Below, piece after piece: positions 4,332-31,395 of a stretch of DNA of 42,833 nt. The DNA lies in NCBI GenBank assembly GCA_038077975.1, contig JBBUGM010000013.1, positions 1 to 42,833 of the forward strand, in the 5' to 3' direction. The stretch's first letter is position 1; each line of letters begins with the position of its first letter. The notes below the pieces were generated by a model. That model worked only from the letters and a program-made list of their open reading frames with translations, made no database searches and was not told the origin of the DNA. A program made the position numbers and the translations under genes. The stretch comes from Patescibacteria group bacterium. GTDB taxonomy: Bacteria; Patescibacteriota; Minisyncoccia; UBA6257; 2-01-FULL-56-20.

Positions 4332-5417
4332 ATGAAAGTTTCCGTTGAGGGAAAAAAAATCGTTGTTTATGACATTATCGGTCCTTATGCCCGCGAGAAC
4401 GCAGTGTTTGACAAGAATATCATAAAAGAAAATTGGTATCACTATTCGTCCCTCTATTTTTACAAAAAATGCCTTGAGAAGGGAATCCAATTCGTCACGC
4501 CCGACGCTTATTTCGCGCTGCCCGAACCGAGGCCTCAGGCGATATGTGTGCGCGAACGCGATGATACGGATATGACCGTGTCGCTTGCACTACGAAAATC
4601 TGGCGTGAAGCTTGCTGTTATAAGAAGCTCCGAGAATCCGCTTTATGCCTGCCGTTTTTATTGGAATCTTCCGCGGCTTACGAGCCACTTCGACCATTCG
4701 ATTGTGATGCGGGGCGTGAAGGCCTGGGTCGCACCCGCGAGCAAATTCCAGCCGCAGTACACTCCCCACCCATACTATGCGCGCATCCGCGCAGTCAGTG
4801 CGGATTTTCATAAGAACAAATTTATTACTCTCATTCAGGGCAATATCCGCACGCACTGGATGCGTCGCTTATATGTGGATGTAATGAATTTTGTGCGTCC
4901 GATGCCGAATTTCGTTAATCGTGAAGGCTATCGCGACCGAATGGAGGCGATAAAATATTTTTCCCAGTATCCCGATTTCGATCTCTACGGTCGCAAGTGG
5001 GACAGGCCGGTTCGCTACACGCACAAGTATGACGAGGCGATAAAAAAATCTTGGCGCGGCGCGCCCGACGACAAATTCGCCATTCTTCAGCAGTATAAAT
5101 TTTCGCTTGTGTTCGAGAACTCGTACCTGGGCGGATACGTGCAATATATAAACGACTCTCTCTATGCCGGTTCTGTGCCGATTTATTGGGGAGCCCCGGA
5201 TATCGCCGAGATGTATCCGGAAAATTGTTTTATTGACTTCCGTAAATTCGGTTGCGATTTCGCGCGTCTCAATGATTACCTCCGCAACATGGACGAGAGC
5301 GAATACAACGAGTATATTAAGAATATTAACGCGTGGATTTCTTCTCCTGCGGCTTATGAGAGAAGTCAGGAGAAATATGTAAGCGACATGATAAAACTTT
5401 TCGAATCATATTTTTAA
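4332..5417 (+). CDS. GT10 (alpha-1,3/4-fucosyltransferase-like) glycosyltransferase
   Basis: FDLYGRKW and QYKFSLVFENSYLGGY...AGSVPIYWG, the GT10 motif (with an atypical EK position); follows gmd-fcl. Confidence 0.8.
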   Translation: MKVSVEGKKIVVYDIIGPYARENAVFDKNIIKENWYHYSSLYFYKKCLEKGIQFVTPDAYFALPEPRPQAICVRERDDTDMTVSLALRKSGVKLAVIRSSENPLYACRFYWNLPRLTSHFDHSIVMRGVKAWVAPASKFQPQYTPHPYYARIRAVSADFHKNKFITLIQGNIRTHWMRRLYVDVMNFVRPMPNFVNREGYRDRMEAIKYFSQYPDFDLYGRKWDRPVRYTHKYDEAIKKSWRGAPDDKFAILQQYKFSLVFENSYLGGYVQYINDSLYAGSVPIYWGAPDIAEMYPENCFIDFRKFGCDFARLNDYLRNMDESEYNEYIKNINAWISSPAAYERSQEKYVSDMIKLFESYF

Positions 5418-5423
5418 AATGGA

Positions 5424-5538
5424 TCCCGTTAGAAGCCGCGGTCGCGCTGCGATAAAAATGATAATAGTTTATGGAAAAATCTTATAAAATAATTAATTCT
5501 ATGCAGGGCGGGATGACCGCGACCTGCTTCTAACGGGA
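5424..5538. mobile_element. MITE-like hairpin element, copy 1
   Basis: Terminal IR TCCCGTTAGAAGC...GCTTCTAACGGGA. Left 22 bp and right 26 bp are identical to the copy at 12817. Flanked by duplicated ATGGA. Confidence 0.8.
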
Positions 5539-6050
5539 TGGAATTCATAAAAACAAAACTTGACGGAGTACTTCTTATCAAGCCAGATACGCAAGAGGAC
5601 TGCCGCGGCAGTTATACAGAAACCTATAACGAAACTCTTTATAAAAAGAACGGCGTTGCGGTTGATTTTGTTGCAGATGACTGTTCCGTTTCTTCTAAGC
5701 ACGTCCTTCGTGGCTTGCATGGCGATGATAAAACTTGGAAATTAATAGATTGTCGGTATGGAAAATTGTATTTTGTCGTGTTGAATGTCGATGAAAGATC
5801 TTCGCAGTACGGGCAGTGGGAATCGTTCACTCTTTCCGATTCGAACCGTTGGCAGGTGCTTGTGCCGCCGAAATTCGCGAATGGCCACCTCGCGCTTACA
5901 GACAAGACCGTTTTTAATTACAAACAATCCGAATATTACGATCCGAAAGGGCAGTTCACGATCCGCTACGACGACCCGAGGTTCAGAATTTGGTGGCCCG
6001 TAAAAATTCCGATCCTTTCACGTCGCGATGAGGAAGGGCATTATGCCTAG
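5538..6050 (+). CDS. RmlC-family 3,5-epimerase (Cj1430/MlghB/DdahB-like), copy 1
   Basis: VLRGLHGDDKTWKL, VPPKFANGH, QFTIRYDDP, PILSRRD. Confidence 0.85.
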   Translation: MEFIKTKLDGVLLIKPDTQEDCRGSYTETYNETLYKKNGVAVDFVADDCSVSSKHVLRGLHGDDKTWKLIDCRYGKLYFVVLNVDERSSQYGQWESFTLSDSNRWQVLVPPKFANGHLALTDKTVFNYKQSEYYDPKGQFTIRYDDPRFRIWWPVKIPILSRRDEEGHYA

Positions 6051-6082
6051 ACGAACCTTCTTTTCGCGCATATAATATCCGC

Positions 6083-6601
6083 ATGGAGATAGTAAAAACA
6101 AAAATGGACGGCGTTCTCCTTATCAAGCCCGACATGGCCGAGGATTTTCGGGGGGGCCGCACCGAGATCTATAACAAGGCCGATCTCGCGAAGCACGGCG
6201 TTGATGTGGACTTCGTCACGGACGACTGGGCATTCACCTCGAAGCATGTTCTCCGCGGCATTCACGGTGACGATAGAACATGGAAGGTCATGTCCTGTTT
6301 CTACGGCAGGAATTATTCGGTGATCGTAAATTGCGACGAGAAGTCGAAGAATTTCGGGCAATGGGACGCGTTCGTTCTTTCGGACACGAACCGCTGGGCG
6401 GTCGTTGTGCCACCGAAGTACGGCGACATCAATATGGCCCTTAGCGAGAAGACAGTTATCTACTACAAGCAATCCACATATTACAACGCGGACCCGAAGG
6501 GCCAGTTCACCTATAAATGGGACGACCCGCGGTTCAAGATCTGGTTGCCGGTGAAGAACCCCATCCTCTCGCGTCGCGATGAGGAGGGGCACTACGTATA
6601 G
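6083..6601 (+). CDS. RmlC-family 3,5-epimerase (Cj1430/MlghB/DdahB-like), tandem copy 2
   Basis: VLRGIHGDDRTWK, YYKQ, QFTYKWDD, PILSRRD. Clear paralog of 5538, with its own TAGACG-17-TATAAT promoter. Confidence 0.85.
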   Translation: MEIVKTKMDGVLLIKPDMAEDFRGGRTEIYNKADLAKHGVDVDFVTDDWAFTSKHVLRGIHGDDRTWKVMSCFYGRNYSVIVNCDEKSKNFGQWDAFVLSDTNRWAVVVPPKYGDINMALSEKTVIYYKQSTYYNADPKGQFTYKWDDPRFKIWLPVKNPILSRRDEEGHYV

Positions 6602-6656
6602 TTTTGAATAAAATTTTTGATTGACAGCGCAGAGAGTTTTAGTGTAGAAGATAAAT

Positions 6657-7595
6657 ATGGCAAAAGTGCTTGTTACAGGGGGGGCGGGGTATATCGGCTC
6701 GGTTTTGGTGCCGGAGCTTTTGCGCGCCGGGCATGAGGTGACGGTAATAGACAGTTTTCTGTTTAATCAGGTTTCGCTTCTTGACGTAGGCCATTTCAAA
6801 ACCCTAACCGTTGTCCGCGGAGACGTTTGGAATAAAGATTTGATCGCCCAGCACATCAAGGGCAAGGATTTCATCATTCCGCTCGCGGCTTTGGTTGGCG
6901 CCCCTATTTGCGCCCAGGATCCTGTTGCGGCGCGTAAGACGAATCTCGAAGCCATCGAACTCCTGCTTACTCTGCGCGACAAGTCACAGAAGATCATTTT
7001 CCCGAACACGAATAGCGGCTACGGCAGAATGCAGGAGGGCGTGGCGTTTTGCGATGAGACGAGTCCGCTCGAACCGGTTTCGTTCTACGGCCAGCTGAAG
7101 GTGGAAGCGGAGAAAAAATTGCTTGAAGCGGGAAACGCGATAGCCCTGCGCCTTGCGACCGTTTTCGGTATCAGCCCAAGAATGCGCCTCGACTTACTGG
7201 TGAACGATTTTGTTTATCGTGCGGTGAACGATGGCGCAGTCATTCTCTTCGAACCGCACTTCAAGAGAAATTATATTCATATTCGCGATGTCACGCGGGC
7301 TTTTATGCACGCGATGGAGAATTTCGAGAAAATGAAAAATAACGCATATAACGTCGGTCTTTCCGATGCCAACCTAAGCAAATCCGAGCTCTGCGCCGAG
7401 ATTAAAAAACAAGTTCCGAAGTTTGTATACGTCGAATCGAAGATAGGCGAAGACCCCGACAAACGCAACTACATCGTCTCGAACGCGAAGATAGAGGCAA
7501 CCGGTTGGAGGCCGCAAGTAACGCTTCAAGACGGCATCGCCGAGCTCATCAAAGGGTATCAGATCATCAAGCGAAACAATTTCTCGAACGCATGA
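6657..7595 (+). CDS. Extended SDR resembling Campylobacter Cj1427 (GDP-D-glycero-D-manno-heptose C4 dehydrogenase)
   Basis: GGAGYIGS, IIPLAALVGAP, PNTNSGYG, RLATVFGISPRMRLDLLVNDF, IGEDPDKRNY; recalled as characteristic of that subfamily. Confidence 0.8.
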   Translation: MAKVLVTGGAGYIGSVLVPELLRAGHEVTVIDSFLFNQVSLLDVGHFKTLTVVRGDVWNKDLIAQHIKGKDFIIPLAALVGAPICAQDPVAARKTNLEAIELLLTLRDKSQKIIFPNTNSGYGRMQEGVAFCDETSPLEPVSFYGQLKVEAEKKLLEAGNAIALRLATVFGISPRMRLDLLVNDFVYRAVNDGAVILFEPHFKRNYIHIRDVTRAFMHAMENFEKMKNNAYNVGLSDANLSKSELCAEIKKQVPKFVYVESKIGEDPDKRNYIVSNAKIEATGWRPQVTLQDGIAELIKGYQIIKRNNFSNA

Positions 7596-8023
7596 ACAGT
7601 GTCTCTTTGGTTATTCTCGTAATACTTATCGGAATTCCTTTTTGGGGAGGGTGGTCGGTTATTGCGGCGAAAAGCGATCTTAAAGATCCGATCGTGCGCG
7701 CGTTTCTTGTTAACGTTGTTACCGTTGTCGCGCTCCTACCGCTTGTTTGGAGCAGATTACAGAGCGGAACTCTAAATTCGAGAGGGTTTTGGATACTTCT
7801 TGCTGCAGGGGTGCTGAATTTCGGGGGACACATTCTTTTCCCGAAACTCCAAACGATGGCCGGAAGCCAGCTTTCTATCTATATGCCGATCATCATCGGA
7901 TTGAACGTTGCGACGTTTGCCTTGGGCGGAGTGCTTTTTTTAGGCGAGTCGATAACGATCGCGAAAGTTATTTTTACGGCATTAATCCTCGCCGGAACCG
8001 CCGGCCTGATTCTTAATTCGTAA
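7592..8023 (+). CDS. Small multi-pass membrane protein, DMT/EamA-like
   Basis: ATGA overlap with the upstream stop; about 5 hydrophobic helices; GVLFLGESITIAK motif. Confidence 0.7.
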   Translation: MNSVSLVILVILIGIPFWGGWSVIAAKSDLKDPIVRAFLVNVVTVVALLPLVWSRLQSGTLNSRGFWILLAAGVLNFGGHILFPKLQTMAGSQLSIYMPIIIGLNVATFALGGVLFLGESITIAKVIFTALILAGTAGLILNS

Positions 8024-8070
8024 TTATCTCTTGTCCCCTTGATGCGCGAGGGGGCGCTTGCTTTTTAAAG

Positions 8071-8098
8071 AAAAGCTGGTATACTGTAACCAGCTTTT
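8071..8098. promoter_or_regulatory. Perfect 10-bp inverted repeat enclosing a -10 box
   Basis: AAAAGCTGGT-ATACTGTA-ACCAGCTTTT, with TTGCTT-16-TATACT. Confidence 0.45.
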
Positions 8099-8117
8099 TG
8101 GTTTCAAGAGGTGTTCG

Positions 8118-8859
8118 TTGAAAAAAATCTGGGAAGTTTGCCCAATGCTTACTCTGATAACGTACCGGGCCTACGAGGGGATGGAGCTTAATCCTCATAA
8201 TTGGGACCACACATTTCGCGTCGCCCAGCACGGCATTAAACATCGCAGAGGATGACGCTACGGGACGGCTGGGCGGGGCTGCGGGCCTCTGCCATGGCGC
8301 CGACCGTATTCTCGAATATCGGCACAACGCTGGGCCTGCAACTTCCTCGGTAAGCAAAATACCATGGGAAGAAAGCCTTAAGCTTCTGAATGCATGGTTT
8401 GATGAAAGCGGTGAGTTCGGCGACGAAGAGCGGGCAAGGGTTATCGATGCAATCCGCCATCATTCCGGCCCGAATCGCGAGAACAGCGACCCCGTTCTTG
8501 TTCTTTTGCAAGACGCAGATCGCATTACCTGCTCGGATATCGCGGAGCTGATCTTGAACGGCCGATTCATGTCAACCCTGCCGGCCTATGATCCGATCCA
8601 CTTAATGGACGATCAGACGGCTCATCCGTTTAAGGATCCGAGATCGGCGTATCGGAACATGTACCTCCGGTTTGAATGGGCCGATCCAAACAACAAAAAT
8701 TTCGGCGTGCGCCTGCCCAAGGCGCAAGCGTTAATGAAGGAACGCGCCGATGCCTTGCGGGCCTTCGACAGTTTCATGAAACAGAACCGTGAGCAGGCCG
8801 GCATTTGGCCGTATCCCAAGGCATTTCTTGACTTCATCGAGACAACGAAGTCAGGGTGA
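8118..8859 (+). pseudogene. HD-domain protein with a +1 frameshift near 8238-8240
   Basis: PHNWDHTFRVAQH in one frame continues as NIAEDD...GLCHGAD...DAIRHHS...LQDADRI in the next. GAGGTG precedes TTG 8118. Confidence 0.75.
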
Positions 8860-8892
8860 AGCTTCATGTAATTTGGCGCAACAACATCGCAC

Positions 8893-8920
8893 GGCGGGAG
8901 AAATATTCTCCCGCCTTTTT
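8893..8920 (+). terminator. Intrinsic terminator
   Basis: GGCGGGAGAA-ATA-TTCTCCCGCC-TTTTT. Confidence 0.8.
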
Positions 8921-9041
8921 CTTTTTCCGGCAAGCGGGTAAAATTATTACATAAAACATTTATCACTATGCGGATATTTTTGACACCAATGAGGAAAGCG
9001 GCGTATGATACCCATAGTTTTACTGCGGGGTAACTTTAAAC

Positions 9042-10019
9042 ATGCAAAAGTGGCCAAGAAATAAATTCGGAAGTACCAACCTTGTTGTTGCCAGAATTTG
9101 TTGGGGTTGTGGCCCGCTAGGCGGGGTACCGGATTTGGGCTATGTCGTTCCGGAGGAAAGGGCGATCGAAATACTACTCAGAGTTTTTGACAGTCCAATC
9201 AACTTTCTCGACACCGCAAACTTCTACGGTGAGAGCGAAAGTAGGATCGGGAAAGCCATTAAATTGCGGGGCGGATTATCGGAGGGTTTCGTTGTAGCCA
9301 CCAAAGCAGACCGTGACCGACAAACCAATAGCTTCAGCGCTAGCCAAGTCAGGAAGTCGGTAGAGACAAGTTGCTCGCGGTTAGGGCTCAAGCATCTTCC
9401 TCTCGTGTATCTCCACGACCCCGAATACCACCCCCTTTACGTTTCGGACAGAAAGAAAGCGATGCAAGAAATTCTTGCTCCGAATGGTCCCGTGGCCGAA
9501 CTCGAGAAGTTGAGAGACGAAGGTATTATTTCGTACATCGGGATATCGGGCGGTCCCATTAATATGTTGATCGAATTCATTTCTACAGGGAGGTTTGACG
9601 CCTTGATAACCCACAACCGCTGGAATTTGCTTTGGCGAGGAGCCGATCCTCTGATCGACAAGGCAAGGGAGATGGGACTTGGCATAGTTAACGCCGCGGC
9701 ATATGCAAGTGGTATTTTAGCGGCTGGGTCCGTCAACGGAGCTCGTGCTGCATACCAAACTCCGACTACGGAAATAATGAAAAAAGTAAAGGGCATGGAG
9801 TCGGTATGTCAAAAATACAATGTCCCGCTTGCGGCAGCCGCTCTTCAATTTTCTCTTCGCGACAATCGTATTTCTTCAACTGCGGTGGGTATATCACGAG
9901 TGGAAGAAGTAGAGGCAACACTGCGTCTTGCAGAGATTGCTCTGCCAGAAAAGATTTGGTCGGAATTGGACATGTTTGCAATTGGAGATGAAGATCCGGA
10001 AAAAAACAGGTGGAAATAG
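9042..10019 (+). CDS. Aldo/keto reductase (aldose/L-fucose dehydrogenase-like)
   Basis: FLDTANFYGESESRIG, VATK, VYLHDP, PLAAAALQF. TTGACA-18-TATGAT lies upstream. Confidence 0.88.
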   Translation: MQKWPRNKFGSTNLVVARICWGCGPLGGVPDLGYVVPEERAIEILLRVFDSPINFLDTANFYGESESRIGKAIKLRGGLSEGFVVATKADRDRQTNSFSASQVRKSVETSCSRLGLKHLPLVYLHDPEYHPLYVSDRKKAMQEILAPNGPVAELEKLRDEGIISYIGISGGPINMLIEFISTGRFDALITHNRWNLLWRGADPLIDKAREMGLGIVNAAAYASGILAAGSVNGARAAYQTPTTEIMKKVKGMESVCQKYNVPLAAAALQFSLRDNRISSTAVGISRVEEVEATLRLAEIALPEKIWSELDMFAIGDEDPEKNRWK

Positions 10020-10026
10020 TTTACTC

Positions 10027-10056
10027 GGGCGTTGCGCTTTGCGCAACGCCCTTTTT
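10027..10056 (+). terminator. Intrinsic terminator overlapping the next promoter
   Basis: GGGCGTTGCGC-TTT-GCGCAACGCCC-TTTTT. Confidence 0.8.
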
Positions 10057-10075
10057 GCATGATAAAATCAATAGA

Positions 10076-10969
10076 ATGAGGGTCTTTCTTACTGGAGCCA
10101 CAGGTTTTATAGGGAAATGCACACTTGAAGAATTGAAAAAGTGCGGGCATCGTGTTCTTGCGCTTTCCCGTCGAACTCACCGCGAGCGCGGCGTGGATTT
10201 TATTAAGGGAGATCTTGCGAATATCGTGAAATGGAAGGGGCGGCTAAAAAAATTCAAGCCGCAAGCGGCGGTGCATCTTGCCTGGGAAGGCATTCCCGAT
10301 TTTTCATACGAGCGGAGCGTAAAAAATTTAGAGGAGGGTATCGCGCTTTTCTCCGCGCTCGCGGGCGTTGGCTGTAAAAAAATAGTCGCCGCCGGCAGCG
10401 GTTTTGAGTGCGGCAACCGTACGGGCAAGATTTCCGACGCTATCCCGGTCGCGCCGTACAATTCTTTCACCGCGGCGAAGCATTCACTCCATCTTATGGG
10501 AGAGGCGCTTGCCCGGGAACACGAAATGGATTTCATTTGGCTCCGTCCTTACAATCCATATGGCAATGGACAAAGGCCCGGTTCGCTCATACCATACATA
10601 ATGCGCACCGTTGAAGGGGAAATACCTTTGCGCCTCAAGAATCCGTTTGCGCAGGGCGACTTCGTTTATATATCAGATGTGGCGAAGATGTTCGCTGATG
10701 CGATTGCGCGCGGCAAAGGTATCGCGACTTATAACCTCGGCTCCGGCTATCTTACGCCCGTGCGGGAGATTGCAAGGATAGTTTGCAAAGAAATAGGCGC
10801 GAGCGAGGAATACTGCAAAGATTTTGCCCGCACGACGAAAGGAAAGTTTCAGCCCGCCGCCTATGCCGACATTTCACGTGTGCGCAAGGACCTCGGCTGG
10901 CGCCCGAAAGTGGATATGGCAGAGGGGATAAAGAAAACCGTCAAAGAATTTCTAAGTTCTAATTACTAA
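10076..10969 (+). CDS. NAD-dependent epimerase/4-keto reductase (paralog of 20595)
   Basis: Start revised to MRVFLTGATGFIG; HLAWEGIPD. The catalytic Tyr position reads FTAAK rather than YxxxK. Confidence 0.8.
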   Translation: MRVFLTGATGFIGKCTLEELKKCGHRVLALSRRTHRERGVDFIKGDLANIVKWKGRLKKFKPQAAVHLAWEGIPDFSYERSVKNLEEGIALFSALAGVGCKKIVAAGSGFECGNRTGKISDAIPVAPYNSFTAAKHSLHLMGEALAREHEMDFIWLRPYNPYGNGQRPGSLIPYIMRTVEGEIPLRLKNPFAQGDFVYISDVAKMFADAIARGKGIATYNLGSGYLTPVREIARIVCKEIGASEEYCKDFARTTKGKFQPAAYADISRVRKDLGWRPKVDMAEGIKKTVKEFLSSNY

Positions 10970-10977
10970 TTGCTAAT
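10950..10977 (+). repeat. Degenerate heptamer repeat TTCTAAG TTCTAAT TACTAAT TGCTAAT over the stop codon
   Basis: Read directly; TAA occurs in all three frames. Confidence 0.75.
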
Positions 10978-10985
10978 TTTTATTA

Positions 10986-11873
10986 ATGAAAATCATTGTT
11001 ACCGGCTCGGAAAGTTTTGTGGCGCGGGAACTTATCGCGCAGTGCCTTAAGGCGGGCATTGAGGTTTTTGGCTTTGATTTCGCTAAAAATAGCGACCTTC
11101 CTTACGAATTCAAAAAAGGCAACATCAATGACCCTAAGATCGGAGATATTTTCCCCGAAGGCGCGGACGCGATCGTGCACCTTGCGGCGATTTCCCGCCC
11201 GCAGGATTGCGAAGGGAAGCCGTACGAAACCTTCCAAACGAACGTGATGGGGACCCTGAATCTCATGCGCGCGGCGAAGGCGAGGGGCGTGCGCCAGTTC
11301 ATTTTCCCCTCAAGCGACTGGGTGTATGAAAAATTCGCAGAAGGAGAGGAGAAGAACGAGGATTCTTTCATTGATATTGCGGGACATACCTCAGAGTACG
11401 CCCTCTCAAAGCTCGTGAGCGAGGCGAATCTTCGGCAAGCGCACTTGCGCGGAGATTTCATGCCAGTAACTATTCTCCGCTTTGCCATTATCTACGGGCC
11501 GCGTCCGGCGAACTGGGGATCTCTCGAACGCGTCGCGAGCGAAGCGAAGAAAAACGATACTATCGCGTTCTCCGGTTCCAAGAAGTCTGGGCGTTGTTAC
11601 ACGCACGTTACCGACACCGCGCGCGGCATCCGAGCCGCGTTCGGCCGGACGGATTTCCAGATCATCAACATCGCGGGGGACAACCTGATTACATTCGAAG
11701 CTATAGTCCACGGCATCGAGAAGCTGTGCAATAAAAAGATCGCCATCATGGAGAAAGATCCCTCAAACGTTGTTGCGCGCAAGATTTCCAACAAGAAGGC
11801 GAAAGAGCTTCTTGGGTGGGAGCCACAGATCGGCCTCGAGGAGGGGCTGAAGACAATTTTTTCTTACCTATAA
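10986..11873 (+). CDS. NAD-dependent epimerase/dehydratase
   Basis: IVTGSESFVA (degenerate Gly motif), IVHLAA, YALSK, LRFAIIYGP. Confidence 0.82.
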   Translation: MKIIVTGSESFVARELIAQCLKAGIEVFGFDFAKNSDLPYEFKKGNINDPKIGDIFPEGADAIVHLAAISRPQDCEGKPYETFQTNVMGTLNLMRAAKARGVRQFIFPSSDWVYEKFAEGEEKNEDSFIDIAGHTSEYALSKLVSEANLRQAHLRGDFMPVTILRFAIIYGPRPANWGSLERVASEAKKNDTIAFSGSKKSGRCYTHVTDTARGIRAAFGRTDFQIINIAGDNLITFEAIVHGIEKLCNKKIAIMEKDPSNVVARKISNKKAKELLGWEPQIGLEEGLKTIFSYL

Positions 11874-11878
11874 AAAGC

Positions 11879-12808
11879 ATGGCGACGACCGATAAACAAA
11901 AAATTGCCGAGGAAGTAATTCGTTTGCGCTTGAGTCAAATGATCGTAAACGAAGAACATAAAAAGGGGCAGTTCAAGATACCCCTGCATCTTGGCATGGG
12001 GCATGAGGCGGTTGCCGTGGCGGTAAGCGAAATAATGGAGAAGGGCGATAATCTTTTGCCCACGCACCGCAACATTGCCTATAACCTTGCCCGAACGGGA
12101 GCGCTTCGTCCTCTGCTCCACGAATATTTGTTGAAGCCCACGGGATTGAATAAGGGGCGGTCCGGTTCCATGAATCTTTTGAACCCGGAGAGGGGAATTG
12201 TCTACACCTCGAGCATCCTCGGTAATCAGTTTCCTGTCGCAGTGGGCCTTGCGAAGGCAGGGAAGATGGCTGGGAAAAATAACGTGACCATCGTTATGGG
12301 CGGCGACGGCTCGATCGAAGAGGGGACATTTTACGAGAGCATGCTTATGGCGCGGAGCCTAAACCTTCCCGTGATTTTTATCATAGAAAACAACGATTGG
12401 TCGATGTCGACGCGTATTAGCGAGCGCCGTTGCCACATTGACCTTTCGCTTTTTGCGGAATCTTTGGATATCCGTTATGTCCATCTCGATGGCAATGACC
12501 CATATTTTTATACAGACGCCTTAAAAGACATGAGGAAATTTTCTGTAGAGAATAGCGTGCCGGTTTGTGTTGAGATAAAAGTGGTTACGCTTGATAAGTT
12601 TCTCATGAAAACGCCGGAACATCCCGAAGGGGAAGAAATACACCCCCATATGGGAGCTGCTCTTGGGGTGTCATTGGATAAGGGGCCGATCATTCACGAG
12701 AACGCCGACGACCCTATTTTTGTGCTCACAAAGCATATTGAGAGGCCGGCTTTCGATGAAATTGCGCGCAAACAATTGGCTTTATTGCAGAAAGAAATTA
12801 CTCTATAA
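11879..12808 (+). CDS. TPP-dependent dehydrogenase E1 alpha-like subunit (pair 1)
   Basis: HLGMGHEAVAV, THR, GRSGSM, GDGSIEEG...ENN. Start revised to MATTDK. Confidence 0.87.
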   Translation: MATTDKQKIAEEVIRLRLSQMIVNEEHKKGQFKIPLHLGMGHEAVAVAVSEIMEKGDNLLPTHRNIAYNLARTGALRPLLHEYLLKPTGLNKGRSGSMNLLNPERGIVYTSSILGNQFPVAVGLAKAGKMAGKNNVTIVMGGDGSIEEGTFYESMLMARSLNLPVIFIIENNDWSMSTRISERRCHIDLSLFAESLDIRYVHLDGNDPYFYTDALKDMRKFSVENSVPVCVEIKVVTLDKFLMKTPEHPEGEEIHPHMGAALGVSLDKGPIIHENADDPIFVLTKHIERPAFDEIARKQLALLQKEITL

Positions 12809-12816
12809 CGAGATGC

Positions 12817-12932
12817 TCCCGTTAGAAGCCGCGGTCGCTTTTCTAGGCAGCAAAATACTAAAATAAACCATATATAAAATCATTTATCGCAGGCCTCGGT
12901 TTTTTGACGACCGCGACCTGCTTCTAACGGGA
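12817..12932. mobile_element. MITE-like hairpin element, copy 2
   Basis: Same termini as 5424-5538; flanked by duplicated ATGC. Confidence 0.8.
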
Positions 12933-13873
12933 TGCAATACGCGGAATACATAAATTCGGTACTCAAAGAGATCATCGCTTCGCGCGACGGTCTTGTGATT
13001 TACGGTCAGAATGTAACAGAGGGTTCCCGTATCGGCGGCCTTACCAGAGGTTTTGAGAAATTGTTGGAGAAAAAAAAGAATCTGATCGATACGACGAATA
13101 GCGAGAATTCGCTCGTTGGCTTCGGATTCGGTTTGATGCTCGGCGGAGGAGCAGCAGCGTTCTTTATGAAACAACTCGACTTTCTTTTGCTTGGTATTGA
13201 CCAGCTCGTGAACACGTATAATATCATTCGGAATAGCGGGCAGACAAAGGGGTCGTTTACGATCGTGCCGACCGTCGTCGATGTCGCCAACCAGGGGCCG
13301 CACTCGAGTTCCAATAATTTCGCCGATTTTTGCTCGATAGCGAGAATTCAGGGATTCGCCATTACGAACAAATATGACGCGGAGAAAATTCTTACCACCC
13401 ACTTTGGCGCGCCGGGATTTCGGATCATCGGAGTAAGCCACAGGTTTTTGAAGGAAGATATCTTTGACCCGGGAGTGCCTGTGGCCGTCGATAAGGAAAT
13501 GAAGTTCGTGCAATACAAAGACGGCGAAGATGCAACGATAGTTTGCTTTAATTTTTCTTTCCCGTACGGCTGGCGGCTTGGGGTTGAGTTAGAAAAAATA
13601 GGCAAGAAACCGGCGCTCTGGAACGTGAACTATATGACCCCAATCGACTGGGCGCCGATTCTTGCAAGCGCGAAGAAAACGGGAAAACTGGTTGTGATCG
13701 ACGACAGCAACAGCGAAAACTTGTCGTGTTTTTCGCTTTTGGCCGAAGCGCGCAAACTGAATCTTAAAAAAGACGTTGTGATAACATCCAAACCCGTGGA
13801 TAACTGGTTCAGCCCCGTCTCGAGCGTGGCGAGCGTGGATTACGCGAAAGTCGCGCGCGATATCGCCTCTTAA
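12932..13873 (+). CDS. TPP-dependent E1 beta/transketolase C-terminal-like subunit (pair 1), divergent
   Basis: IYGQNV, NSENSLVGFGFGL, QGPHSS, SAKKTGKLVVID; follows the alpha subunit. Confidence 0.8.
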   Translation: MQYAEYINSVLKEIIASRDGLVIYGQNVTEGSRIGGLTRGFEKLLEKKKNLIDTTNSENSLVGFGFGLMLGGGAAAFFMKQLDFLLLGIDQLVNTYNIIRNSGQTKGSFTIVPTVVDVANQGPHSSSNNFADFCSIARIQGFAITNKYDAEKILTTHFGAPGFRIIGVSHRFLKEDIFDPGVPVAVDKEMKFVQYKDGEDATIVCFNFSFPYGWRLGVELEKIGKKPALWNVNYMTPIDWAPILASAKKTGKLVVIDDSNSENLSCFSLLAEARKLNLKKDVVITSKPVDNWFSPVSSVASVDYAKVARDIAS

Positions 13874-29411: not shown

Positions 29412-30362
29412 ATGTCAGCACTTTTGGATGCATACAAAAAAATGTTCCTGATACGGGTGGCGGAGGAGGAGCTCGCGGCGTTATTCCTTAAGGACAAGAT
29501 CATGAGTTTCGTGCATTTCTATATCGGCCAAGAGGCGGTGGCTGTTGGTGTTTGTGACGCGCTCCAAAAAGATGATAAGGCCCTAGGGAATCATCGTTCT
29601 CACGGCCATTACTTGGCAAAAGGCGGTGATCTGAAAAAAATGATCTGCGAAATGTTGGGCAAGGAGGAAGGTTCTTCTCATGGTAAAGGCGGGTCTATGC
29701 ATATGATCGATCGATCGGTGAATTTCGTGGGTTCAACGCCAATTTTGGGAGGCATCGTACCGATCGCGTGCGGTACTGCTTTCGAGCAAAAATACCACAA
29801 CAAAAACAGCATAACGGTCGCCTTCTTGGGTGATGGAGCTTTTGAAGAAGGTATTGTGTATGAGACGCTTAACCTCGCCGCGCTCTTTAAACTGCCGTTG
29901 CTCTTGGTGGTCGAAAATAATTTATTCTCAACCAATTCCAAATTGAAAGACAGGCGGGCTGACACGCACCACGTTGAGAAGATCGTAACCGGTTTCGGCG
30001 TCATGTACCTCAAGGCCGACGGAAATGATTATCAGGACGTCTTGGGAAAAGCGAAAAAACTTATAGAGGGCGTCCGAGCCGGCAGCCCCGCGGTTTTGGA
30101 ATGTATGACACATAGGCACCTCGCGCATAGCGGTCCGGTTTTTGAAGAAGAATATCGGGAAGAAGATACCGCAGAGCATAGGTCGGAAAAAGATTCCATC
30201 AAGAAGATGCGGCAGGTCGTTTTGAGGAACGGTGTTTCGGAGAAGGAAATTGTAGGCGCTGAAAACGACACCAAAAAGATCGTTCAAGATAGTATTGATT
30301 TTGCCCTGCACGCGCCTTATCCGCCGAAAGAAAATCTTTATACCGATTTATATGCCCAATAA
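29412..30362 (+). CDS. TPP-dependent dehydrogenase E1 alpha-like subunit (pair 2)
   Basis: HFYIGQEAVAVG, HRSHGHYLAKGG, GKGGSMH, GDGAFEEG...ENN. Confidence 0.9.
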   Translation: MSALLDAYKKMFLIRVAEEELAALFLKDKIMSFVHFYIGQEAVAVGVCDALQKDDKALGNHRSHGHYLAKGGDLKKMICEMLGKEEGSSHGKGGSMHMIDRSVNFVGSTPILGGIVPIACGTAFEQKYHNKNSITVAFLGDGAFEEGIVYETLNLAALFKLPLLLVVENNLFSTNSKLKDRRADTHHVEKIVTGFGVMYLKADGNDYQDVLGKAKKLIEGVRAGSPAVLECMTHRHLAHSGPVFEEEYREEDTAEHRSEKDSIKKMRQVVLRNGVSEKEIVGAENDTKKIVQDSIDFALHAPYPPKENLYTDLYAQ

Positions 30363-31395
30363 CAGAATTCTTAAATATACCGAAGCCATCAAGGAGGCCA
30401 CGGACCAGATGATGGAGAACGACCGCGATATTTTTGTCATTGGTCTTGGTGTTACATACAGGAACGGTGCGGATGGCACCACGTCCGGATTGAACGCCAA
30501 ATATCCCGGGCGAGTTCTCGACGTGCCAAACTCGGAAGGCGGCTGGACCGGCATGGCTGTTGGAGCGGCTATCAATGGACTTCGGCCCATTGTGCATCAC
30601 GGCAGGGTAGAATTTAGTTTGCTCGCCGCTGACCAAATTTTCACGCAGGCGGCAAAATGGAACTATATGTTCGGCGGGGTGAGTAATGTGCCGATCGTGT
30701 TTCGGATAAACGTGGGGAGGCAGTGGGGGAACGGCCCCCAGCACACCCAGGCGCTTTATGGACTGTTCGGTAACGCCCTTGGGTTGAAGGTGGTAATACC
30801 GTCAACACCTCGCATGGCGAAAGGGCTCCTAGTTTCCGCGCTCCGCGATAATAACCCCGTGGTTATTCTTGAGCCACGTTGGAATTTTCAGGTGAAGCAA
30901 GACGTGCCTACCGAGGTTTATGGTGAACCTCTTGGAAAAGCGCGAGTGGCAACGCCGGGAAAAGATATCACGGTGGTCGCATACGGAGATGGCTTCGTCG
31001 CCGCGCACGAAGCGCTTTCTCTTGTCGGAGAAAGCGTTAGCATGGAATTGATCGATCTTGTTTCCCTTAACCCGATCGATTACGAAACAATTATTGCTTC
31101 GGTGCAAAAGACCGGGCGACTGCTTTGCGTAGATACTACGAACGAAGTATTCAATGTCGGATCAGAAATTATCTCCAAAGTCGCGCAGCAAAAGTCCTTG
31201 CGCTTGCTGGATGCGCCGATCTCTCTTGCCTGTCCCAATGTTCCCTGTCCGACATCTACCGCGCTCACAGAATTTTATTATCCGACAAAAGCTGATATCG
31301 CGAATGCGGTGTTGCGCGCCATGCACAAGCCCGAAATTACCCGTGCATTAACGTTTGAGGAATTGCATCTTGCGCCGACAATTACCATCCCGTAA
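30352..31395 (+). CDS. TPP-dependent dehydrogenase E1 beta-like subunit (pair 2)
   Basis: DVPNSEGGWTGMAVGAAINGLRP, GPQHTQ, PGKDITVVA, SVQKTGRLL. Start revised to MPNNRIL. Confidence 0.9.
   Translation: MPNNRILKYTEAIKEATDQMMENDRDIFVIGLGVTYRNGADGTTSGLNAKYPGRVLDVPNSEGGWTGMAVGAAINGLRPIVHHGRVEFSLLAADQIFTQAAKWNYMFGGVSNVPIVFRINVGRQWGNGPQHTQALYGLFGNALGLKVVIPSTPRMAKGLLVSALRDNNPVVILEPRWNFQVKQDVPTEVYGEPLGKARVATPGKDITVVAYGDGFVAAHEALSLVGESVSMELIDLVSLNPIDYETIIASVQKTGRLLCVDTTNEVFNVGSEIISKVAQQKSLRLLDAPISLACPNVPCPTSTALTEFYYPTKADIANAVLRAMHKPEITRALTFEELHLAPTITIP

Follow-up and report, generated by a model that had tools for sequence, protein, structure and literature searches.

Within a 42,833-nucleotide stretch of DNA from a Patescibacteria group bacterium (contig JBBUGM010000013.1 of assembly GCA_038077975.1; referred to here as the window), two short inserts of 115 and 116 bp, termed copy 1 and copy 2, lie flush with the start codons of two genes of a 42.8-kb sugar-nucleotide and surface-polysaccharide cluster, each being bounded by a short direct repeat. 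Both inserts are very probably non-autonomous, internally deleted derivatives, in the manner of MITEs (miniature transposable elements with inverted repeats), of an ultra-small mobile element of Patescibacteria type, since a 274-278-bp form bounded by the same termini in related genomes encodes a nuclease. Coordinates are collected in Table 1.

The two window copies share the same 22-nt left end, for which exactly two perfect matches exist in the 771,694-bp genome, and the same 26-nt right end, GACCGCGACCTGCTTCTAACGGGATG, with their terminal sequence reading TCCCGTTAGA. Copy 1 opens with TCCCG and closes with CGGGA, its terminal bases being T and A. The interiors, of some 70 nt, are AT-rich and gave no alignment with one another (blastn). 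Copy 1 is found in the context TAA-a-ATGGA, element, ATGGAATTC, and copy 2 in the context TAA-cgag-ATGC, element, ATGCAATAC.

In the fold of both copies, an outer stem of 13 bp is separated from an inner one of 7 bp by four unpaired bases, ACCT, which bulge from the 3' arm; the free energies are -47.9 and -46.8 kcal/mol, respectively (z = -5.9 for each; 0 of 200 shuffled sequences folded as well). Because the terminal T and A form a stem pair, the outer stem comprises 13 bp and the A of the start codon is readable as the last base of the element; indeed, the ATG of the gene downstream of copy 1 (5538-5540) falls on both the last base pair of the stem and the second ATGGA repeat. The duplication proper can then be read as TGGA (4 nt) for copy 1 and TGC (3 nt) for copy 2, the sequence alone being compatible both with a 5-nt duplication and with one of 4 nt plus a base of the element.

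Much of this had been described in a first-pass annotation, made from the letters of the window and a list of its open reading frames (ORFs). Sequence, alignment and folding agree with its account of two copies with identical ends and a bulged terminal stem, flanked by ATGGA/ATGGA and ATGC/ATGC, and the folding that it had proposed as a check returned a strong bulged hairpin in both. Its statement that both downstream genes remain intact is likewise correct, the ORFs of 170 and 313 amino acids each matching Pfam families, as is the resemblance that it noted between the MEFIKTK start downstream of copy 1 and the MEIVKTK start of a paralog. The claim that the ATG is part of the duplication stands as to the presence of the repeats and is to be corrected in that the A can be assigned to the element.

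Distribution, position and mobility of the family

Scanned in full for the motif, the genome (33 contigs, 771,694 bp, 88.6% complete) revealed five copies rather than the two originally described, all flush with the start codons of unrelated genes. One of the three further copies lies at the start of rplR, an essential gene present here in a single copy. The stems of these three differ from those of the window copies by compensatory changes. When the family pattern CCCGTTAGA-N85-115-TCTAACGGG was sought in 41 related genomes, 98 copies were obtained in 17 of these, with up to 18 copies per genome, while a reversed-pattern control gave none; of 401 genomes drawn from across the phylum, 33 contained the exact termini. 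The hairpin inserts thus exceed chance, given the position of all five genome copies at start codons and the 98 matches versus none for the reversed pattern. Many other copies, sharing only the ends, were present in four groundwater metagenome runs.

Eighty-six distinct copies were considered further, 13 of the 18 copies of relative G036, which were not fetched, being left out. As nine stem bases are fixed by the search pattern, covariation was judged on the pairs beyond these. Stem pairs 10-12 were each paired in 83 of the 86 copies, using two to four pair types, and the terminal pair was T:A in 76 and C:G in eight.

In 65 of the 86 copies, the element adjoins the start codon, ATG in 64 and GTG in one, of an ORF 60 or more amino acids long; six abut an ATG with a shorter frame and 15 have other flanks. 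Among the 65 gene-start copies, the direct repeat measures 5 nt in 40, 4 nt in five, 6 nt in one and at most 1 nt in 19, such that 46 retain a repeat of 4-6 nt; the downstream start codon is kept in all 65. Besides ATGAA, the matched, locus-specific repeats include ATGGA, ATGCG, ATGTA, ATGAG and ATGC. ATGAA accounts for 42 of the 65 insertion sites, as opposed to 36 of 231 background gene starts, a rough comparison in that the background consists of crudely predicted ATG starts of this genome preceded by a Shine-Dalgarno-like motif and in that the related genomes are not independent. The enrichment suggests a sequence preference on top of start-codon position and, as such, points to start-codon placement reflecting sequence preference as well as selection. 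With respect to orientation, the arm bearing the bulge lies toward the gene in 48 of the 65 copies and away from it in four, 13 being unassigned.

Insertion polymorphism was apparent upon comparison with element-free junctions. In this genome, the junction of the genes for ribosomal proteins L6 and L18 spans 132 nt, whereas the element was absent from this junction in all 28 relatives scored (30 loci fetched of 40 matches), with the gap measuring no more than 34 nt in 21 of these, including a genome of the same genus. For the E1 beta gene downstream of copy 2, a single ortholog was found among 40 relatives, that of G036 (47% identity), which adjoins E1 alpha; in that genome, the two genes overlap and are free of any insert. 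The window itself holds a second E1 alpha/beta pair (29412-31392), with strong Pfam matches and overlapping called ORFs, that contains no element and so offers an internal, paralogous 'empty' junction. Moreover, identical or near-identical interiors occur at different loci with different flanks in G010 (loci L046 and L049) and in G028 (L017, L072 and L081), from which it follows that the short copies do move as units. DNA searches of both window regions against G001, of the same genus, gave no match; the sugar cluster is not conserved in G001, and hence no close empty site was obtained for either window copy. In contigs from four groundwater DNA runs of one study, possibly the source of this DNA, copy 1 is spanned by X3 record 18 and X4 record 26 and copy 2 by X3 record 24 and X4 record 31.

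The view of the first-pass annotation that a non-autonomous mobile element targets, or survives only at, start codons is supported by these additional copies, by the empty junctions and by the longer coding form considered below. The searches that it had proposed turned up more copies, mostly abutting start codons within locus-specific repeats, as well as orthologous junctions without the element (L6/L18 and E1 alpha/beta).

Other structures were noted at the L6/L18 junction in relatives. In G016 (contig C3, locus L149), a hairpin of a different family (TCCCTCACCCTTTAAAGAT...ATCTTTAAAGGGTGAGGG) lies flush with the ATG of rplR and looks like an independent strike on the same start codon. In four other relatives, palindromic spacers of 70-101 nt occupy this junction.

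The same termini were also seen in other settings. The core termini recur in hairpins of 34-80 bp in this genome, in most cases with C:G as the terminal pair, and none of these directly adjoins the start of a long ORF; G018 holds four comparable terminus pairs of 66-69 bp. A tRNA-Ala(CGC) gene lies inside CCCGTTAGA...TCTAACGGG termini in G025 (C4:1730-1839; L016:1501-1610), and a closely similar tRNA-like sequence lies inside the same termini in G036, which belongs to a different family (C9:34629-34746). Such a tRNA could be cargo, or the termini could serve as a processing stem. Finally, the termini surround some 110 nt of GC-rich sequence with strong structure in G038 (C3; L062:1201-1327) and G036 (C3:6031-6158; L067/L073), flanked by ATAAA repeats and with no long ORF adjoining.

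The nuclease-bearing form and the origin of the inserts

Seven elements that share the termini but measure 274-278 bp were retrieved from the 41 related genomes by a direct pattern search; they come from six genomes, all of which also hold the short form. In a Pfam search of five copy-rich genomes, five GIY-YIG genes were found to be bounded by these same termini. The only gene of this full-length form encodes a single-domain GIY-YIG nuclease of 86-94 amino acids, with the ORF being intact in five of the seven elements and frameshifted in two. Pfam GIY-YIG matched all five proteins tested (E-values of 6e-20 to 9e-14), covering residues 1-69 or 9-77, while NCBIfam returned nothing above cut-off for four of the nucleases. 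The closest solved structure by sequence is that of the UPF0213 protein BH0048 (1zg2; E-value of 9e-8). The longer copy with a transposase that the first-pass annotation had suggested be sought therefore exists as a longer form with the same termini, but one that encodes a GIY-YIG nuclease only.

In the full-length form, the nuclease frame is interwoven with both the termini and the host gene. The termini offer 13 bp of pairing, T-CCCGTTAGA-NNN ... NNN-TCTAACGGG-A, and the nuclease ORF runs through the right terminus, where ...CTG TCT CTA ACG GGA encodes ...RFLSLTG. In the five intact copies, the codon that follows the last nuclease codon is a TGA formed with the flank, such that the nuclease stop overlaps the ATG of the host gene (ATGA); the C-terminal frame of the two frameshifted copies likewise leads into this TGA. 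Three of the seven elements lack an ATG of their own near the 5' end of the ORF, their frame being continuous with the duplicated host ATG, entry from which reads ATG AAT/AGT CCC GTT AGA (M-N/S-P-V-R...). The full-length elements are co-oriented with the host gene, an arrangement matched by the orientation of the bulge-bearing arm in the short copies.

Traces of this gene persist in short copies. The right arm of the short copy on contig C27 is 92-96% identical to the 3' coding ends of full-length elements over 21-24 nt, short copies of G010 retain the nuclease ATG and its ACGGAAAC (LRK) codons, and what appears as the bulge of a short copy matches in position the F-L codons near the nuclease C-terminus. 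Where the upstream ATG of a short copy is intact, as in 46, this decoy start opens a frame that spans the whole element in 18, ending in ten of these at a TAA inside TCTAACGGG, 4 nt ahead of the ATG, and in eight at an ATGA overlap. Of the remaining sense frames, one is open across the element in four of the 46 copies and the other in one, the three antisense frames being so in nine, ten and none; in none of the 46 does translation from the decoy continue into the host protein. The loop is where the short frames of the window copies end, 50 nt (copy 1) and 65 nt (copy 2) before the real ATG, and that of the rplR copy ends likewise, at 42 nt. As single-copy rplR carries such an insert, the arrangement is evidently compatible with expression of the host gene, which is as far as this copy goes towards the regulatory role that the first-pass annotation had put forward as a possibility.

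Together, these relations suggest how the inserts could have come about. The element would land on a start codon, usually that of an ATGAA sequence, leaving a direct repeat of 4-5 nt. The old ATG, together with the ribosome-binding context of the host, would then read into the element (ATG AAT CCC GTT AGA, or MNPVR...) and thence into the nuclease frame, the end of which (...CTA ACG GGA TGA) would overlap the rebuilt host ATG (ATGA), such that ribosomes could pass to the host gene. The GIY-YIG nuclease would be the mobilising enzyme. In the window copies, the nuclease gene would have been lost, with both ends being kept as a 20-bp bulged hairpin and the frame of the decoy ATG stopping in the loop; translation of this short frame might melt the hairpin and allow re-initiation at the real ATG, or else ribosomes might start anew on the 3' arm once it is freed. 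In this genome, the copies would now be stranded, or would depend on a nuclease that was not assembled.

Several observations weigh against this reading. The pattern search found no full-length copy in this 88.6%-complete genome, and none of its eight GIY-YIG matches (seven of them small) is bounded by these termini. Likewise, 11 of the 17 genomes with short copies contain no full-length copy in the size range searched, including G036 with its 18 short copies. The interiors of the five genome copies match neither each other, nor the 86 copies, nor the seven full-length elements, only the outer 21-39 nt at each end doing so; a recent burst would not be expected to leave such divergence, and conservation of the ends goes unexplained if there is no nuclease. 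Some copies lie at repeats other than ATG (GTTTAC, GTAAAC, ATTTA and ATAAA), and repeat length varies from 3-4 to 5-6 nt. Among the metagenome contig joints listed, none removes either window copy, which is weak evidence, as contigs drop rare variants. Finally, GIY-YIG nucleases are hydrolytic, and we know of no strand-transfer activity in this group. Three readings account for end conservation in this genome, namely, that a cognate nuclease lies in the unassembled 11%, that a sibling nuclease acts on the ends or that there is a reason at the level of the host.

Sibling mini-elements of this type were indeed observed in the genome, each with a GIY-YIG gene of 76-108 amino acids between other inverted repeats (CCGAGCACATAAGTTAT, CCCCCTCACTCGAAAA and CCCTCC(A/T)AACTTTTTATACC), together with gene-less derivatives of these. 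Two of the sibling families adjoin a stretch in common, TGCTCAATTTTG..., which spans some 70 nt and is found upstream of unrelated genes, and a third ends in GGAGGG, 14 nt ahead of the next ATG.

It is conceivable, if somewhat short of an even prospect, that the 275-bp form is a complete, autonomous transposon, the sole protein of which is a bare GIY-YIG domain and which borrows the ribosome-binding site and ATG of its host and returns the ribosome by way of ATGA, making it a new class of element and a parasite at the level of translation, with the window copies as its stranded, non-coding offspring. If so, docking on start codons would follow from the element having no promoter or ribosome-binding site of its own, and hand-back of the ribosome through the ATGA overlap would allow even essential genes to tolerate the insert. 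To our knowledge, such an element would be the smallest transposon known. The window inserts are to be classed as non-autonomous inverted-repeat elements, the parent of which may represent a new transposon class.

Were the GIY-YIG protein the mobilising agent, it would define a transposon class separate from those with DDE, HUH, serine or tyrosine enzymes, and the size below which no autonomous element is known would have to be lowered. Start-codon docking also offers a way for a selfish element to persist in genomes with almost no non-coding DNA, the start codon being the one position at which a 4-5-nt duplication regenerates what insertion destroys and at which the translation signals of the host come free. 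On a practical level, gene callers and expression models applied to Patescibacteria will be led astray by the decoy starts that these inserts create and by the very stable hairpins lying over true starts.

Other origins of the inserts were also considered. They could be ordinary MITEs moved by a conventional DDE or HUH transposase encoded elsewhere or in other members of the community, with the GIY-YIG gene as a passenger or a nested selfish gene. Terminal inverted repeats with short direct repeats are the classical signature of DDE transposition, the 11 genomes with only short copies would be in line with such an origin, and the many metagenome copies with the same ends mean that trans-acting functions could sit in other genomes. 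This origin is nonetheless unlikely. In G018, which is 98% complete, distances between paired termini are confined to 66-69, 101, 110-122 and 275 bp (24 pairs and 16 solo ends), and no larger element with these termini, that is, none exceeding 275 bp, was found. Nor does the nuclease ORF behave as nested cargo, given that it crosses the right terminus and, in three of seven copies, begins in the duplicated host ATG. As transposase families were not searched in any genome, these points do not amount to the absence of a conventional transposase.

GIY-YIG enzymes are best known as homing endonucleases, and it could be argued that the nuclease cuts unoccupied ATGAA starts that are then repaired from an occupied copy, the apparent duplication being pre-existing microhomology. 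The excess of ATGAA among insertion sites (42/65 versus 36/231 crude gene starts) and the variable length of the repeats would fit such a process, which is, however, highly improbable, since repair templated by an ATGAA donor would not yield the ATGGA, ATGCG, ATGTA, ATGAG and ATGC repeats that match on both sides, and since 5 nt is very short for recombinational repair. Still more doubtful is that the inserts are host structures acting in cis in regulation or RNA processing, such as an RNase III-type stem or a translational attenuator, and not currently mobile; the very stable and covarying stems, the conservation of ends but not of interiors, the tRNA-Ala gene bracketed by the same termini in two families and the tolerance of single-copy rplR would suit this proposal, yet repeats that differ from locus to locus, orthologous junctions devoid of the element, the recurrence of identical copies at more than one locus and a form that shares the termini and encodes a protein speak against it, as do the lack of an Rfam match in the window and of a sense-strand promoter- or terminator-like site in either copy.

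Features of the window and its surroundings

Table 1. Coordinates of the inserts, of adjoining genes and of related features in this genome. Positions refer to the window unless a contig (C) is given.
Feature	Coordinates	Strand	Basis and remarks
GT10-like glycosyltransferase gene, upstream of copy 1	4332..5417	+	ORF list; Pfam PF00852; stop TAA 5415-5417
ATGGA repeat upstream of copy 1	5419..5423	+	Original start-codon position, 1 nt past stop; now decoy start
Short upstream frame, copy 1	5419..5487	+	22 codons and stop from decoy ATG (MDPVR...); nuclease frame of full-length elements
Element copy 1	5424..5538	+	Outer stem arms 5424-5436 and 5526-5538; inner stem arms 5437-5443 and 5515-5521
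ACCT bulge of copy 1	5522-5525	+	Sequence and fold
AT-rich interior of copy 1	5444-5514	+	Sequence and fold
RmlC-like dTDP-4-dehydrorhamnose 3,5-epimerase gene, downstream of copy 1	5538..6050	+	170 amino acids; Pfam dTDP_sugar_isom
E1 (thiamine pyrophosphate-dependent dehydrogenase) alpha gene, upstream of copy 2	11816..12808	+	Pfam PF00676; stop TAA 12806-12808
ATGC repeat upstream of copy 2	12813..12816	+	Sequence; now decoy start
Short upstream frame, copy 2	12813..12866	+	17 codons and stop from decoy ATG
Element copy 2	12817..12932	+	Outer stem arms 12817-12829 and 12920-12932; inner stem arms 12830-12836 and 12909-12915; ACCT bulge 12916-12919
E1-beta-like protein gene, downstream of copy 2	12932..13873	+	313 amino acids, intact
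Further copy	C11:27898-28015		Start of rplR (L18), directly after rplF; repeat ATGAA
Further copy	C27:50696-50821		Start of PBP-like gene; repeat ATGA
Further copy	C31:34576-34689		Start of gene for 202-amino-acid membrane protein; repeat ATGAA
Sibling GIY-YIG mini-elements	C31:19555-19810; C8:203-458; C11:10234-10529; C11:82116-82396		
Gene-less derivatives of sibling mini-elements	C31:36545-36641; C17:4176-4283; C3:1760-1793		
Short hairpins	C1:13403-13452; C7:1794-1843; C3:8909-8988; C22:4023-4056; C1:18170-18258		

The assignment of the E1-beta-like protein relies on Pfam matches to Transket_pyr and Transketolase_C that are weak (E-value of about 1e-5) and below the curated cut-offs. As the first-pass annotation had stated in the case of transposases, no match to a transposase, integrase or GIY-YIG family was obtained for the 47 window ORFs scanned, nor does any of the eight GIY-YIG matches of the genome lie on the window contig. 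Rfam, at gathering thresholds, gave no match across the whole window. Promoter and terminator scans found no sense-strand promoter- or terminator-like site inside either window copy, and an internal outward promoter was accordingly dropped as a candidate; a single weak antisense promoter-like site was seen in copy 1, with counts for the region falling within the range of shuffled sequences. An integron attC site was rejected, as the GTTAGAA...TTCTAAC order is the reverse of the R''...R' layout generally known for attC. An archaeal-type bulge-helix-bulge and translational bypassing were both considered, with nothing found in their support.

Two further features of the window were noted. A 139-amino-acid ORF with a PD-(D/E)XK_3 nuclease domain (PF13366) is found at the edge of the polysaccharide cluster (1769-2185). 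At 10986-11077, the start of an NAD-epimerase gene, summed metagenome contig depth reached 43-85, relative to 17-24 in adjacent bins, probably reflecting a conserved N-terminal motif common to other organisms.

Comparison with known systems

Very small elements with hairpin ends that are recognised as single-stranded DNA, and with gene-less derivatives, are known from the PATEs of IS200/IS605 and from REP/REPIN sequences with RAYT. These insert in a fixed orientation relative to an asymmetric target of 4-5 nt, employ a Y1 HUH transposase, produce no target duplication and possess subterminal hairpins. Small size, hairpin ends, gene-less derivatives and orientation to an asymmetric 4-5-nt target are shared by the elements described here, in which, however, direct repeats occur and each end pairs with the other rather than forming a separate subterminal hairpin. 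Free-standing homing GIY-YIG enzymes, such as I-TevI and the Seg proteins, rely on a separate DNA-binding domain, address one cognate site and are associated with neither inverted repeats nor duplications. As in the present case, these are selfish GIY-YIG nuclease genes in compact genomes; here, by contrast, the nuclease is a bare catalytic domain and many unrelated genes are struck.

As to MITEs, the inserts measure less than 300 bp, hold no complete gene, bear terminal inverted repeats and are flanked by locus-specific direct repeats. They are, moreover, dispersed in multiple copies, have unoccupied sites and are related to a longer element with the same ends, the mobility of which may be driven by its ORF. 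The target duplication of Correia elements is TA, and no coding parent is known for them, whereas the elements considered here dock exactly on start codons, have the ATG rebuilt and derive from a 275-bp GIY-YIG parent. Otherwise, the likeness to Correia (CREE), ERIC and RUP elements is close, these being, as outlined in part in a 2024 review of MITEs (PMC10969869) and in part generally known, short, non-coding, multicopy sequences with inverted repeats and target duplication that adopt a fold in mRNA and are frequently located directly upstream of genes. Rickettsia palindromic elements, as presented in the same review, are also palindromic repeats of reduced genomes that persist by keeping frames usable, but insert in frame within genes and are translated in the host protein (PMC10969869), while the elements studied here precede the first codon. 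Neither 'start codon' nor 'GIY' occurs as a term in the main text of that review (PMC10969869). Indeed, a literature search, including term searches of the main texts of PMC11893778, PMC12455944 and PMC10969869 as distinct from their supplements, found no published description of GIY-YIG elements with inverted repeats or of MITEs that dock on start codons.

The nearest published system found, insofar as the main text of that report describes it, is that of the Ssn nucleases and their NTS/SRM hairpin repeats (Chenal et al. 2025, PMC11893778). These enzymes cut single-stranded DNA, and the authors remark that the NTS-ssnA-NTS layout resembles an insertion sequence. The main text contains neither 'start codon' nor 'Patescibacteria' as terms, with the supplementary homolog lists possibly including members of the latter. 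Common to both systems is a single-domain GIY-YIG protein of about 90 amino acids, the gene of which is flanked by hairpin repeats that are also present as many gene-less copies (PMC11893778). A single domain of about 90-100 amino acids, as in Ssn, was found in the full-length relatives (86-94 amino acids) and not in the window. The NTS/SRM repeats differ in being self-contained hairpins of about 30 bp with an ATTCCC-N8-GGGAAT core that are scattered around genes (PMC11893778), and neither window copy contains ATTCCC or GGGAAT. In the elements described here, by contrast, the ends pair across the whole element, lie flush on start codons with a repeat and enclose an ORF embedded in the translation of the host gene. 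As has been argued for the Ssn enzymes (PMC11893778), nucleases of this sort may prove to be sequence- or structure-specific tools.

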